The notes beneath the pieces were generated by a model that did not search any database, was not told the origin of the DNA, and saw only the letters and a program-made list of their open reading frames with translations. Shown piece by piece: positions 34,098 through 45,056 of a stretch of 64,000 bases of DNA. Both the position numbers and the translations under genes were made by a program. Source of the stretch: Minisyncoccota bacterium (GTDB lineage: Bacteria > Patescibacteriota > Minisyncoccia > Phycocordibacterales > UBA2100); contig JARLIE010000040.1 in assembly GCA_031291875.1 (NCBI GenBank), forward strand, positions 3,011 through 67,010, given 5' to 3'. Each line of letters opens with the position of its first letter. Within the stretch, counting starts at the first letter, position 1.

Positions 34098-34152
34098 TAC
34101 AGCTACGCCCCGCATTGCGGGGCGTAGCTTTTCGTACTGATATAATAGATGA

Positions 34153-34644: not shown

Positions 34645-35304
34645 ATGCCTACTTCTTCCTCAAATTCTTCGAACACGCGATCAACCCAAGATTTTGTCCC
34701 TGTAGCGGAGGTACGCGACGGCATCATCGTACTTAAGGATGGTTCGCTCCGCGCGGTGCTTCTCGCTTCTTCAATCAACTTCGCGCTCAAATCCGAAGAC
34801 GAGCAAACAGCATTTATCGTACAGTTCCAAAACTTCCTCAATTCGCTCGACTTTTCCGTACAGATATTCGTTCAGTCTCGTATGCTCGATATTCGTCCCT
34901 ACATCGCCACACTTGAGGCGCAATTTAAACAGCAGCTCGACGATCTCATGCGCATCCAGATTCGCGAATACATCGAGTTCATCAAAAGTTTCACCGAAGC
35001 GGCTAACATTATGACGAAGAACTTCTTCGTAGTCGTTCCGTACTCTTCGGTTTCGGTGAGTACAAGCAAGATCTCCGGCATTCTTCCGTTTGGTTCCAAA
35101 AAAACAGATCAAGCGGCGGCGAATAAATCATTCGAAGAGCAGGTGACGCAGCTCGAACAGCGCATCTCTATCGTGCAGCAGGGGTTGGTACGAACCGGCG
35201 TTCGAACCGTCCAACTCGGCACCGAGGAGGCAATCGAGTTACTCTATAAGATGTTTAACCCCGGCGAAGAAGGGAAGCCGATGGTTTTGCAGCAAGATCA
35301 ATAA
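34645..35304 (+). CDS. VirB4 N-terminal segment (CagE/TrbE/VirB4-like), ends at an in-frame TAA
   Basis: DGIIVLKDGSLRAVLLASSINFALKSEDEQTAFIVQFQNFLNSLDFSVQIFVQSRMLD matches the conserved start of the VirB4 N-terminal domain. It is in the same frame as the next ORF, separated by TAA plus one codon. Confidence 0.6.
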   Translation: MPTSSSNSSNTRSTQDFVPVAEVRDGIIVLKDGSLRAVLLASSINFALKSEDEQTAFIVQFQNFLNSLDFSVQIFVQSRMLDIRPYIATLEAQFKQQLDDLMRIQIREYIEFIKSFTEAANIMTKNFFVVVPYSSVSVSTSKISGILPFGSKKTDQAAANKSFEEQVTQLEQRISIVQQGLVRTGVRTVQLGTEEAIELLYKMFNPGEEGKPMVLQQDQ

Positions 35305-35307
35305 TCT

Positions 35308-37416
35308 ATGGCACTTACAGATTACCTGCCGTTTGGAAAAAAGAAGGACTCCTCCCCGGATGTGCTTCCTGTTTTGCCCGCTGAAATCTACCAAACGGGC
35401 GTACTCGACCTGCAAGATGTTATCGCCCCGCACGCGCTCAAGGTCTCGCCGAAAGAAATCGATCTCGGAGAGAAAATCGCCCGTACCTTCTTCGTGATTT
35501 CGTATCCACGATTCCTAACGACGGGATGGTTCGCGCCAATCATCAACATGGACAAGGTGTTGGATATTTCCATTTTCATTCACCCGATGGATACCAATGA
35601 AATGCTTCGCAAATTCCAAAAGAAGGTGGCGGAGGTACAATCGCAAATCGCGACGCGCGAAGAGAAGGGGATGGTGCGTGATCCGATGCTCGACACCGCC
35701 TATTCCGACCTGGAACAGCTTCGTGATTCACTCCAGCAGGCACAGGAACGCATCTTCGAAGTGGGGCTGTACCTCACCATTTATGGCTCTACACGTGAAG
35801 AAATCGACAAGGTCGAATCGGAGGTACGCTCGGTGCTCGAATCCCGTCTCGTCTATATTCGTCCGGCGCTTTTCCAACAAGAGGGCGGCTTCCGTTCAGT
35901 CTTACCGCTTGCAACGGACGAGCTTGGCGTACATACCAAGCTTAATTCCGCACCGCTTTCCTCGATATTTCCGTTCATCTCCTTCGACCTTACCTCGGAT
36001 CGAGGCATTTTGTATGGCATCAACCGCCACAATTCCTCACTAATCCTCTTCGATCGTTTCTCGCTCGAAAACTACAACTCAGTAACGTTCGCCAAGTCCG
36101 GTTCCGGCAAATCATACACAACCAAACTTGAGATTTTGCGTTCGCTTATGTTCGATACCGAGGTCATCGTTATCGACCCTGAGCGCGAATATGAATATCT
36201 GGCCGAAACGGTTGGCGGTCGCTATTTCAATATTTCTCTTTCATCCGAGCACCACATCAATCCGTTCGATCTTCCGATCCCTCGCGAAGACGAAGCCCCG
36301 TCAGATGTATTGCGCAACAACATCATTACCTTGGTAGGTCTTTTCCGCATCATGCTCGGCGGATTAACTCCAGAAGAAGACGCCATTATCGACAAGGCAA
36401 TCACTGAAACCTACGCGCTTAAGGACATCACCCCGGACGCAAATTTCGCACAGGTCGAGCCTCCGCTTCTTTCCGACTTTGAACTCGTACTCTCGGGCAT
36501 GGAGGGAAGCGAATCGCTCGTGCAGCGTCTGAGTAAATACACCAAAGGAACCTGGTCCGGCTTTATGAACCGTCCGACCAATGTCGACATGAACAAAAAG
36601 CTTGTCGTCTTTTCGGTGCGCGACATGGAAGACGACCTCAAACCGGTCGCTATGTATATTATTACGCACCACATTTGGAACACGGTCCGTAAAGAACTTC
36701 GCAAGCGCCTGTTGGTTATCGATGAGGCGTGGTGGATGATGCGCTCAGAAGACACAGCGTCGTTCCTTTTCGGTATCGCGAAACGTGGTCGTAAGTACTA
36801 TCTCGGTATCTCCACCATTACACAGGACGTTTCCGACTTTTTGAATTCTCCTTATGGCGTGCCGATGATCACCAACTCCTCGATCCAGATTTTGCTGCGT
36901 CAATCGCCGACGTCCGTCGACCTTGTGCAGCAAACATTTAAACTTTCGGATGAAGAAAAATATCTCCTGCTTGAATCCGACGTAGGGGAGGGCATCTTCT
37001 TCGCAGGACTCAAACACGTCGCAATCAAGGTTATTGCCTCGTATACCGAAGACCAAATTATCACCTCCGACCCCTCGCAAATTCTTGCCATTAAAAAAGC
37101 GAAACAGGATCTCGAGCTCTCCAACGAACCTCCTGCCGAAAATGCTGCGCAATCACTAGCTGCACAAGCGCCAGTCGTGGCAAGCGTCCCGCCTGAGGTG
37201 CCTGCAATCACCGGGAACGCTAGTGCCCAAGTTCCTCCACCCGTCCAACCTGCCCCCGCGCCCGTGCCGCCTCCCGTGACACCGGTGGTGTCAGCTGCGA
37301 TTACCGCGCCTGCTGCACCGCTTCCACAAGCCGCGCCAGCCCCTGTTGCCGCGCCTATTCCAGCACCCGCCCCAGCACCGACTCCTGCGGCCGCTCCTGA
37401 GGCGCTGGGTGTATGA
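35308..37416 (+). CDS. VirB4/TraC/TrbE-family type IV secretion ATPase (main part)
   Basis: Walker A (FAKSGSGKSYT) and a VirB4-type Walker B (RLLVIDEAWWMM). Also has the ISYPRFLTTGWFAPII mid-domain motif. A Pro/Ala-rich C-terminal tail spans about 37100 to 37416. Confidence 0.9.
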   Translation: MALTDYLPFGKKKDSSPDVLPVLPAEIYQTGVLDLQDVIAPHALKVSPKEIDLGEKIARTFFVISYPRFLTTGWFAPIINMDKVLDISIFIHPMDTNEMLRKFQKKVAEVQSQIATREEKGMVRDPMLDTAYSDLEQLRDSLQQAQERIFEVGLYLTIYGSTREEIDKVESEVRSVLESRLVYIRPALFQQEGGFRSVLPLATDELGVHTKLNSAPLSSIFPFISFDLTSDRGILYGINRHNSSLILFDRFSLENYNSVTFAKSGSGKSYTTKLEILRSLMFDTEVIVIDPEREYEYLAETVGGRYFNISLSSEHHINPFDLPIPREDEAPSDVLRNNIITLVGLFRIMLGGLTPEEDAIIDKAITETYALKDITPDANFAQVEPPLLSDFELVLSGMEGSESLVQRLSKYTKGTWSGFMNRPTNVDMNKKLVVFSVRDMEDDLKPVAMYIITHHIWNTVRKELRKRLLVIDEAWWMMRSEDTASFLFGIAKRGRKYYLGISTITQDVSDFLNSPYGVPMITNSSIQILLRQSPTSVDLVQQTFKLSDEEKYLLLESDVGEGIFFAGLKHVAIKVIASYTEDQIITSDPSQILAIKKAKQDLELSNEPPAENAAQSLAAQAPVVASVPPEVPAITGNASAQVPPPVQPAPAPVPPPVTPVVSAAITAPAAPLPQAAPAPVAAPIPAPAPAPTPAAAPEALGV

Positions 37417-40022: not shown

Positions 40023-40442
40023 ATGAAAAAGCTATTTAAGAAATTGGATTTCCGTACGCTAGGCCTCCTCTTCCAGGGAACATTCGTACCGCTTTCCGGT
40101 GGTATAAACGGAAGCTCTTCGGGATCGAATCTTGCCGGACCTTTGTCGCAATGGTTTTCAAGTGGAGATCTACCGCAATTCTTCAATGCAACTTTCAATA
40201 TGGCGTTTTCCGCTGGCGCGATTTCGGCAGTGCTGCGCCTTGCCTATGCGGGTTGGCTCTACATGGGAGCACAAGACATGTGGGGATCGAAACAGCGCGC
40301 AAAAGAAATCATCATGGATGCGGTGCTCGGCCTACTCTTACTTATCGGTATTTGGGTAATCCTTCACCAGATCAACCCATGCCTCCTAGACCTGAATATT
40401 CTACAATCGCTCCAAGGAGGGAGTAGCTGTAACGCGTCCTAA
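40023..40442 (+). CDS. Small membrane protein, pilin/VirB2-like candidate
   Basis: 139 aa: N-terminal leader, Gly/Ser-rich segment, then two hydrophobic helices (AGAISAVLRLAYAGWLYMG; AVLGLLLLIGIWVILH). Last gene of the block. Confidence 0.45.
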   Translation: MKKLFKKLDFRTLGLLFQGTFVPLSGGINGSSSGSNLAGPLSQWFSSGDLPQFFNATFNMAFSAGAISAVLRLAYAGWLYMGAQDMWGSKQRAKEIIMDAVLGLLLLIGIWVILHQINPCLLDLNILQSLQGGSSCNAS

Positions 40443-43958: not shown

Positions 43959-45056
43959 ATGAAGCTCTCCACAACGAAAAGTCAGATTCTGAATGCGACC
44001 ATTCTTGCGGAGCGCATCGCAGGAAAAAAAGAAACATTACCAGTACTTTCTTGTATCCTCATTGAGGCCGAAAAAGAGATCGTCTTACGTTCGACAAACC
44101 TTGAAGCGGGAATCGAAATCAAAATAGGTGGAGAGATTGAGGAGAAAGGAATCATTGCGGTCCCAGCAAATATTTTTTCTCAGACACTTCGTTCCATCGG
44201 TAGCGAAAAGGTTACGCTCAGGAGCGAAGAGGGAAACCTACTCATCGAATCGAAGGGAACAAAAACCCTCATCAAGGCCATTCCTCACGGTGAATTTCCA
44301 GCATTCTCTGCTTCGGAAAAGGGAAGCGGTGTGCAGCTCCCGCGGGAGCGATTTTTGGAGGCGATCCAATCCGTTGTATATGCTGCTTCTCCTTCGATGA
44401 TCAGACCTGAGCTCGGGAGTGTGTATGTTTCAGTTAAGGCTTCCAGTGTGGTTTGTGTTGCAACGGATTCATTTCGACTCGCGGAAAAAACACTACACGC
44501 TCAAGCTGCAAAGCACGAAGCTGATATCCTTATACCCCTTAAACACGCCGGAGAACTTGCCTACATTTTGGAGCGCAGCGATACCGATACGATCGAGGTG
44601 ATCGCGGAGGATGTGCAGATGACGGTTGCACTAGACGGTATACGATATGTTTCTCGCGTTATTGATGCTCAATTTCCAAACTATAAAGACGTTATCCCCA
44701 AAGACGTCGCAACCGAAGCGACACTTTTGAAAAACGACCTCGCTGAAATGTTAAAAAAGGCGCGCGTATTCGCTGGTCAGGAACAGCACCTAGGGTTTCA
44801 TATTTATCCGAAAAAGAAAATCTTTTCTGCGACTGCCCGAAGCTCTGATGTTGGAGAAATGTCCGACTCGATCGACGCAGCGCTCGAAGGCGAGGATATC
44901 GACATCAATTTCCATATTGGTTATTTAGCCGAGTGTTTATCGAGTATAGAGTCCGACTCAGTAACACTTTCGTTTGCGGGGCAGGGCCGTCCGCTTGTCG
45001 TGAAGGGGGTCTCCGATCCGAGCTTCCTCTACCTGGTAATGCCTTTGAACAGATAG
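43959..45056 (+). CDS. dnaN: DNA polymerase III beta sliding clamp
   Basis: Three-domain beta clamp. MKLSTTKSQILNATILAERIAGKKETLPVLSCILIEA is the typical DnaN N-terminus. Confidence 0.9.
   Translation: MKLSTTKSQILNATILAERIAGKKETLPVLSCILIEAEKEIVLRSTNLEAGIEIKIGGEIEEKGIIAVPANIFSQTLRSIGSEKVTLRSEEGNLLIESKGTKTLIKAIPHGEFPAFSASEKGSGVQLPRERFLEAIQSVVYAASPSMIRPELGSVYVSVKASSVVCVATDSFRLAEKTLHAQAAKHEADILIPLKHAGELAYILERSDTDTIEVIAEDVQMTVALDGIRYVSRVIDAQFPNYKDVIPKDVATEATLLKNDLAEMLKKARVFAGQEQHLGFHIYPKKKIFSATARSSDVGEMSDSIDAALEGEDIDINFHIGYLAECLSSIESDSVTLSFAGQGRPLVVKGVSDPSFLYLVMPLNR

Follow-up and report, generated by a model that had tools for sequence, protein, structure and literature searches.

The DNA analysed (64,000 nt in full, hereafter the window) carries a type IV secretion system (T4SS) gene cluster adjoined by dnaA and dnaN. 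Its features and their coordinates are collected in Table 1. The database record of the ORF1 protein gives the host as Candidatus Pacebacteria, and homologues are recorded as Paceibacterota or Kaiserbacteria. The coordinates of ORF1 and ORF2 in the first-pass annotation, their shared frame, and the TAA and TCT preceding the ATG at 35308 were confirmed in the sequence, which reads CAG CAA GAT CAA TAA TCT ATG GCA across the junction.

Table 1. Features of the T4SS locus, in positions of the window.
Feature	Position	Strand	Remarks
Polytopic membrane protein, 777 aa	31219..33552	+	8 TM-like segments (hydropathy scan); same operon
GC-rich hairpin	34102..34128	+	TTTT follows; seen on direct reading of the sequence
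TATAAT	34141..34146	+	6 nt upstream of the prgI ATG; read directly in the sequence
PrgI-family (VirB3-like) membrane protein, 161 aa	34153..34638	+	6-nt gap to ORF1 downstream
ORF1, stand-alone TrsD-like protein, 219 aa	34645..35304	+	Frame 1; homologous to the VirB4 N-terminal module
Junction TAA-TCT-ATG	35302..35310	+	ORF1 stop, one codon, ORF2 start; same frame
ORF2, VirB4-family ATPase without the N-terminal module, 702 aa	35308..37416	+	Frame 1
ORF2 N-terminal tail, residues 1-30, MALTDYLPFGKKKDSSPDVLPVLPAEIYQT	35308..35397	+	Predicted disordered; corresponds to the linker position in fused homologues
Walker A, AKSGSGKS	36091..36114	+	ORF2 residues 262-269; ~481-488 in the joined protein
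Walker B region, LLVIDEAW	36709..36732	+	ORF2 residues 468-475
Ala/Pro-rich low-complexity C-terminal tail of ORF2, 98 aa	37120..37413	+	29 Ala and 28 Pro in 98 residues
Small protein, last gene of the cluster	40023..40442	+	Weak T4SS pilin match

Among the T4SS partners encoded beside ORF2, PrgI exceeded its Pfam cut-off (PF12666, E 7.7e-10, 39.6 bits, cut-off 27) and had one TM-like segment by hydropathy scan. The small protein closing the cluster matched T4SS_pilin weakly and below cut-off (PF18895, E 0.0024, 18.4 bits, cut-off 26.6). The polytopic protein had no family match in Pfam or NCBIfam scans, and its context and TM-like segments only make it a candidate VirB6-like channel subunit. 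The remaining junction gaps of the operon were all tight (1, 2, 6, -4, 8, 1 and 9 nt). The hairpin and TATAAT upstream of prgI were not flagged by a consensus scan; from their sequence they are a probable terminator and promoter, at which the prgI-trsD-virB4 transcription unit would start. No promoter-like or terminator-like site was found at the ORF1-ORF2 junction by consensus scan, and prgI, ORF1 and ORF2 appear to be co-transcribed.

ORF2 matched positions 185-733 of 752 of NF045971 (conju_CD1110) with E 1.2e-107 and 361.1 bits, above the cut-off of 325. P-loop_TraG (E 2.4e-24) and AAA_10 were found by Pfam, PDB 4ag5 (VirB4 C-terminal domain) by sequence search (E 2e-40), and TrwK and 4ag6 by Foldseek. 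With both Walker motifs in place, these matches bear out the earlier description of ORF2 as the rest of the VirB4 N-domain plus the ATPase. The architecture of a full single-chain VirB4 is absent from ORF2, the N-terminal ~130-180 model positions being matched by ORF1 instead. No Pfam or NCBIfam domain match reaches into the Ala/Pro-rich tail.

ORF1 had been described as the start of the CagE/TrbE/VirB4 N-terminal domain. In the NCBIfam profile search the 219-aa protein did align to this region, at the N-terminal end (~130-180 positions) of VirB4 models: 95-235 of 894 in VirB4_plasma (E 2.4e-12), 3-127 of 752 in conju_CD1110 and 4-179 of 792 in TIGR00929. The CagE_TrbE_VirB domain itself did not match; the Pfam scan of ORF1 returned no model above threshold and a sub-threshold FEZ match only. 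A PDB sequence search with ORF1 alone gave no VirB4 match, and one with an ORF1 family profile gave no PDB chain at all. The homology was taken from the NCBIfam models and from the fold. The ORF1 AF2 model (pLDDT 85) was used in a fold search, in which the top 14 PDB matches were all R388 TrwK/VirB4 (probability 1.00), the next fell below 0.25, and no non-VirB4 match reached E 0.1. In precomputed tables PF26593.2 is given for the ORF1 record and for every stand-alone and fused homologue; the local Pfam scan gave no PF26593 match, and a literature search on this family found nothing. ORF1 was also considered as a duplicate of ORF2's own N-domain, owing to a similar beta-strand/helix pattern, and this was rejected (hhalign probability 0.5%).

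The TrsD/TraD model NF041427 was matched end to end by ORF1 (positions 10-200 of 201, E 1.7e-7). Because the score of 31.3 bits is far under the curated 200-bit cut-off, ORF1 is classed by sequence as a distant TrsD/TraD homologue outside the curated subfamily. At least 8000 ORF1 homologues were found. The best 120 were all 200-229 aa long, and 149 of the best 150 representatives at 50% identity were shorter than 450 aa. Mean column identity was ~80% among 30 close homologues, and relatives up to 90% identical are stand-alone proteins. Many ORF1 homologues carry disordered tails of 100-200 aa, which intact VirB4 does not have.

ORF1 and ORF2 match complementary parts of the NCBIfam VirB4 models. 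For comparison with intact VirB4, both were modelled in AF2 as one artificial chain, aligned against fused homologues; such a model cannot prove an interface. The joined model (pTM 0.53) superposed on full-length TrwK (8rtd_O, E 4e-30, TM 0.57/0.58, 888 columns), and residues 214-245, at the junction, had pLDDT <50, which is consistent with a linker. Each piece is homologous to VirB4, and the two are collinear with the intact protein. The earlier estimate of a canonical VirB4 of ~920 aa on joining needs correction, as ~98 of these residues are the Ala/Pro-rich tail and the VirB4-like part is ~820 aa.

Fused relatives of 775-807 aa numbered at least 118 among the matches listed, and several are named Candidatus Colwellbacteria. 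These contain both modules in the order seen in the window. In P0268 (797 aa), residues 6-211 are ORF1-like (42% identity) and residues 226-796 are ORF2-like (56% identity); this natural fusion confirms the remote homology of ORF1 to the N-terminal part of VirB4. The Colwellbacteria protein is a single polypeptide with a ~15-residue linker, whereas in the window a stop, TCT and a start occupy this place. The P0268 alignment begins only at ORF2 residue 31, and the fusion lacks an equivalent of the 30-residue, LPFGKKK-containing ORF2 tail. A neighbour-joining tree based on the N-module placed the fused Colwellbacteria nine nodes deep among stand-alone sequences, within a 12-leaf clade that includes two stand-alone members. 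Of 30 bootstrap trees, 12 had the fused sequences four or more nodes deep and none made them exclusively monophyletic; outgroup distances were saturated, and support is weak for fission versus secondary fusion. The 'short' VirB4 proteins P0289 and P0385, which fall within the fused clade, were considered as independent fissions and rejected, being broken by frameshift or deletion, or else assembly errors.

Orthologous loci of 77 related species genomes were compared at the junction. Homologues of ORF1 and ORF2 were separate, adjacent and split at one common place in all 77, every ORF2 homologue started at ATG, and no uninterrupted ORF was found in any of these loci. The details of the junction varied freely. 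ORF1 ended in TAA (38 loci), TAG (31) or TGA (8), the gap ranged from 1 to 411 nt (often 1-6 nt), and all three relative frames occurred (offsets 33, 23 and 21). The arrangement of the window, with a shared frame and a single stop, recurred in 10 of the 77; the frames differed in 56, several stops intervened in 11 more, and a separate 117-aa gene lay between both ORFs in three loci. A gap of 3 nt is typical for this operon, and an in-frame state is expected by chance in about a third of tight junctions. In this light, speaking of a gene that a single in-frame TAA has split is misleading. Because the two-gene layout is conserved across Patescibacteria, the in-frame relation of TAA and ATG is a coincidence without mechanistic meaning.

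Of the four explanations put forward in the first-pass annotation, the separate genes in all 77 species support that of a genuinely split, two-subunit VirB4 (the assembly of the subunits being inferred), and the junction comparison rejects the other three. A recent nonsense mutation, by which an intact virB4 became a pseudogene or truncated pair, is suggested by the two frames in register across one stop and one codon, and intact fused homologues do exist in another lineage. It is nevertheless extremely improbable, given a split at the same place in every related species, an ORF2 ATG that is kept while stop, gap and frame vary freely, and the high conservation of ORF1 as a protein on its own. 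Two genes with their own ATG and divergent junctions were also the outcome named beforehand as speaking against an interrupted gene. Truly broken genes look different: in L081 and L082, both of the fused clade, frameshifts or deletions lie inside the N-module, not at the linker. The same two loci illustrate that metagenome-assembled genomes, of which the present source is one, carry errors, so that a false stop codon from sequencing or assembly might be suspected. The chance of this is negligible, however, since the independent assemblies of 77 other species have the two-gene structure too; an identical 219-aa protein appears in public records (NCBI, nr, Logan assemblies), all from a single 220-kb contig. 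Programmed readthrough, yielding full-length VirB4 beside both separate products, is suggested by the one stop between in-frame ORFs that the window shares with 10 of its 77 relatives. It is very improbable in view of the different frames or several stops at most other loci and the extra gene present in three. The stop context was not conserved in the 77 loci, which use three stop codons.

A further alternative accepts two genes and places the TrsD-like protein outside the VirB4 protomer, as an independent factor (assembly chaperone, regulator or VirB3-binding adaptor) descended from the VirB4 N-module. The long disordered tails of many homologues, absent from intact VirB4, would fit such a role. 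We regard it as decidedly unlikely, because synteny is tight with junctions often of 1-6 nt, the fused relatives show the module working in cis with the body, and the joined model superposes on the whole TrwK chain.

The two-gene VirB4 layout is already published and conserved across Patescibacteria; it is real and ordinary, and a T4SS specialist would find no surprise here. TrsD is the most abundant T4SS component reported in this phylum, usually adjoins virB4 and has remote homology to the VirB4 N-terminus; 2,272 homologues were counted in 2,221 Patescibacteria assemblies, 1,664 of them virB4-associated (PMC12102498). The location of the Patescibacteria T4SS locus beside dnaA has been remarked on (Quinonero-Coronel et al. 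2025, PMC12102498). The window agrees with this published system in phylum, dnaA neighbourhood and gene set (PrgI/VirB3, TrsD-like protein, VirB4, polytopic membrane protein, pilin-like protein) without substantive difference, and is one more instance of it. The T4SS of Ca. Southlakia epibionticum is essential (Wang et al. 2023, PMC10633639), and its TrsD homologue is listed as essential (PMC12102498). The junction structure of trsD-virB4 is not discussed there (PMC12102498); the junction survey and the hairpin spacers described below are the contribution of the present analysis.

Two other systems are comparable. TrsD/TraD of Gram-positive conjugative plasmids (pGO1/pSK41 subclass, MPF_FATA; NF041427) is, like ORF1, a small stand-alone homologue of the VirB4 N-terminus encoded directly upstream of a VirB4-like ATPase, and prgI, a small TrsD-like gene and the virB4 body occur in the same order on Firmicutes plasmids (Geobacillus, Clostridium botulinum). 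ORF1 shares only 25-31% identity with its best Gram-positive plasmid homologues (mostly Firmicutes), and the Patescibacteria system is chromosomal and, according to the literature, needed for epibiotic growth and not for plasmid transfer. Intact VirB4/TrwK of R388 (PDB 7o41-7o43, 8rtb, 8rtd) is matched specifically by ORF1 and by the joined model, with the ATPase motifs conserved. It is, in contrast, a single 823-aa chain of a diderm T4SS, and sequence identity is 15-20%.

Taken as a whole, the explanation that we consider highly probable is that the window comes from a Paceibacteria-type (Kaiserbacteria-like) patescibacterium and contains its chromosomal T4SS locus, in which two separate and stably inherited neighbouring genes encode VirB4, one for a TrsD-like protein of ~220 aa and one for the ATPase body. 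The ORF1 product would correspond to the leading module of the VirB4 N-terminal domain and the ORF2 product to the remaining N-domain with the P-loop ATPase, the split site corresponding to the short disordered linker of fused relatives. Translation of ORF1 and ORF2 is probably coupled, as stop and start are 3 nt apart; the mode of ORF2 initiation is unreadable from the sequence because Shine-Dalgarno motifs are absent from most genes of this genome. The most likely outcome is that both products join non-covalently in a VirB4-like protomer and that this protomer docks with PrgI/VirB3 at the membrane.

[quoted passage not shown] The complementary model coverage, the VirB4-specific fold, the Colwellbacteria fusion and the position of the split in a disordered linker together suggest a simple hypothesis, in which TrsD represents the leading module of the VirB4 N-terminal domain in detached form. 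The names to use in annotation are TrsD-like protein and VirB4 ATPase, and not pseudogene, frameshift or recoding site.

Whether the split is functionally exploited rather than neutral was also considered. The TrsD-like module might serve as a subunit that has its own dosage or can be exchanged, and might recruit the ATPase body to PrgI/VirB3, with hairpins at the junction uncoupling the expression of both halves in roughly one in three related species; we consider this unlikely. The hairpins are intervening-sequence-like elements that lie exactly at the junction in these species, and TACAAT boxes, which might act as promoters, occur in their loops. An Rfam search of ten related loci with such hairpin spacers gave no family at the gathering threshold. 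A 23S_rRNA_IVP gene is present in some of the elements, a hint that the operon mRNA may undergo RNase III-type processing. The idea of an exploited split concerns these relatives; the junction in the window is a plain 3-nt gap.

ORF1 (a TrsD-like gene matching the VirB4 N-terminus) and ORF2 (the downstream VirB4-family ATPase body) were found to share a reading frame, with a single TCT codon between the ORF1 TAA and the ORF2 ATG, so that the coordinates and junction in the first-pass annotation read exactly as claimed. The 3-nt gap is ordinary, as gaps at other operon junctions in the window are equally tight (1, 2, 6, -4, 8, 1 and 9 nt), and a site scan of the junction found no promoter-like or terminator-like site.

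Features of the ORF1-ORF2 locus and its surroundings in the window
Feature	Position	Strand	Description
Hairpin + TTTT, then TATAAT box	34141..34146 (box)		Just upstream of prgI
ORF1	34645..35304	+	219 aa, ATG start, TAA stop at 35302..35304
LPFG(S/K)KK, first copy	35083-35103		ORF1 residues 147-153, low-confidence loop
ORF2	35308..37416	+	702 aa, ATG at 35308
LPFG(S/K)KK, second copy	35326-35346		ORF2 residues 7-13, disordered N-terminal tail
Walker A	ORF2 residues 262-269
Walker B	ORF2 residues 468-475
Ala/Pro-rich ORF2 C-terminal tail	37120-37413		Last 98 residues
dnaA	42365..43735	+	About 2 kb downstream of T4SS cluster
dnaN	43959..45056	+	Downstream of dnaA

ORF1 gave no significant match in a local Pfam copy. 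NCBIfam profile search aligned it with N-terminal segments of a number of VirB4 models (VirB4_plasma, 95-235 of 894, E 2.4e-12; conju_CD1110, 3-127 of 752; TIGR00929, 4-179 of 792), bearing out the proposed homology, and ORF2 covered complementary parts of these models (conju_CD1110, 185-733 of 752, E 1e-107, 361 bits; cut-off 325). ORF2 also matched the solved Thermoanaerobacter VirB4 C-terminal domain (4ag5, E 2e-40). ORF1 aligned end to end with TrsD/TraD NF041427 (positions 10-200 of 201, E 1.7e-7), but its score of 31 bits falls well short of the 200-bit cut-off. In a PDB fold search with an AlphaFold2 model for ORF1 (pLDDT 85), the top 14 matches were all chains of TrwK, the VirB4 of plasmid R388 (probability 1.00, query-normalised TM 0.36-0.56), and no other match exceeded probability 0.25. 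ORF1 as a duplicate of the ORF2 N-domain was ruled out (hhalign probability 0.5%).

At least 8000 ORF1 homologues were found. The best 120 (78-100% identity), encoded by Paceibacterota, Kaiserbacteria or Parcubacteria, were without exception stand-alone and 200-229 aa long; for 30 of these, mean column identity was 80%. Of the 150 top representatives at 50% identity, 149 were short (146-443 aa), and the longer stand-alone homologues examined had disordered tails. The sole exception, P0268 (797 aa), is a fusion of both modules, its residues 6-211 corresponding to ORF1 (42% identity) and 226-796 to ORF2 residues 31-600 (56% identity). Fusion was seen in one lineage, with at least 118 fused relatives of 775-807 aa, several named Candidatus Colwellbacteria; an N-module tree was compatible with either fission or re-fusion. 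ORF1 joined to ORF2 residues 1-600 was modelled using an alignment that included natural fusions (pLDDT 73, pTM 0.53). The joined model superposed on whole TrwK chains (8rtd_O, E 4e-30, TM 0.57/0.58, 888 columns), and residues 214-245 around the junction had pLDDT below 50, which points to a disordered linker. ORF1 and ORF2 are therefore collinear with intact VirB4 and divided in a linker.

For comparison of junctions, 80 orthologous loci were fetched, one per species genome, and 77 were analysable. In all 77 the ORF1 homologue ended and a separate ORF2 homologue started with ATG, a recurrence across species that argues against a sequencing or assembly error. A recent nonsense mutation is likewise contradicted, as all of these loci are split with differing stops, gaps and frames: gaps were 1 nt (16 loci), 2 nt (7), 3 nt (6), 4-6 nt (10), 9-20 nt (6), 70-100 nt (26) or more than 100 nt (6). 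Programmed readthrough is opposed by the variable stop codons (TAA 38, TAG 31, TGA 8), by frame offsets distributed 33, 23 and 21, and by the presence of the window's layout, same frame with a single stop, in only 10 of the 77. The in-frame TAA is incidental. Disruptions in the fused clade differ from the ORF1/ORF2 split in being internal to the N-module, which is broken by frame changes or deletion at the loci of two 600-aa proteins (P0289, P0385). On the Colwellbacteria-type MAG contigs L081 (1282-1790) and L082 (1362-2193), a frame change within the N-module interrupts the normally fused virB4, and L081 additionally lacks about 100 residues; assembly error or pseudogene formation is the probable cause.

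Of the four options first raised, recent mutation, sequencing or assembly error and readthrough are rejected, and a genuinely split two-subunit VirB4 stands in its genetic part: two conserved genes are jointly equivalent to one VirB4. On the physical side, the two products would probably form a VirB4-like protomer held together without a covalent link. The chief competing explanation still standing gives TrsD a role of its own, as adaptor or regulator. Co-transcription of prgI, ORF1 and ORF2 is probable, with the hairpin/TTTT and TATAAT just upstream of prgI, and ORF1-ORF2 translation is probably coupled across the 3-nt gap.

The feature is real and the observation correct; the arrangement itself is already known, as it was published by Quinonero-Coronel et al. 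(2025; PMC12102498), and ORF1/ORF2 is a new instance of this widespread two-gene VirB4. In that work TrsD was remotely homologous to the VirB4 N-terminal portion and outnumbered every other T4SS component in Patescibacteria (2,272 homologues in 2,221 assemblies, 1,664 of the homologues virB4-associated); TrsD had no assigned function, and the homologue of Ca. Southlakia epibionticum was listed as essential (PMC12102498). The T4SS of this organism was described as essential for epibiotic growth (Wang et al., 2023; PMC10633639). Firmicutes plasmids such as Geobacillus pGspE55-1 and C. botulinum pCBG share the order prgI, small ORF1-like gene, virB4 body. The window's cluster (about 27.7-40.4 kb, + strand) encodes a polytopic membrane protein, PrgI (VirB3-like), ORF1, ORF2, several small membrane/secreted proteins and a product that weakly matches pilin. 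The cluster adjoins dnaA/dnaN and thus a probable replication origin, in agreement with the remark that the Patescibacteria T4SS locus is often near the origin (PMC12102498).

Most genes in this genome had no Shine-Dalgarno sequence, so this analysis was uninformative for ORF2 initiation. TATAAT boxes lay 5-9 nt 5' of several starts (prgI; dnaA; a ChlI-like gene, 21638), which, together with the scarcity of Shine-Dalgarno sequences, suggests leaderless or very short-leader mRNAs in this organism.

Like ORF2 with its Ala/Pro-rich C-terminal tail, many stand-alone ORF1 homologues (among them P0183, P0195, P0158 and P0216) were extended at one end or the other, by 100-200 aa of disordered sequence rich in Pro, Gln, Ala and Thr. 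Such tails and extensions are not known in intact VirB4 proteins of other bacteria. By strict pattern search of the window and related loci, the basic motif LPFG(S/K)KK was present in the ORF1 loop in 38/77 and the ORF2 tail in 22/77, with DLFKKK in its place in many other listed ORF2 tails.

The trsD-virB4 gaps were bimodal (1-20 nt in 45 loci, 70-100 nt in 26, nothing between). Many long spacers, absent from the window, had no mutual sequence similarity and resembled long inverted repeats of short tandem units, spanning the ORF1 stop codon to just before the ORF2 ATG (for example L045, 4634-4735; L017, 4667-4753; L041, 4664-4753; L060, 4661-4761; L027, 4652-4751). On folding, 7 of 10 had z-scores of -2.6 to -8.2. 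A TACAAT or TAAAAT box was present in many of the spacer loops, and an Rfam search of ten spacer-bearing loci gave no family match. In three species (L064, 4693-5046; L047 and L067, 4670-5084), similar arms flanked a 117-aa gene matching Pfam 23S_rRNA_IVP (PF05635, E 2.3e-14, above cut-off), which together form an intervening-sequence-like element within a protein-coding operon.
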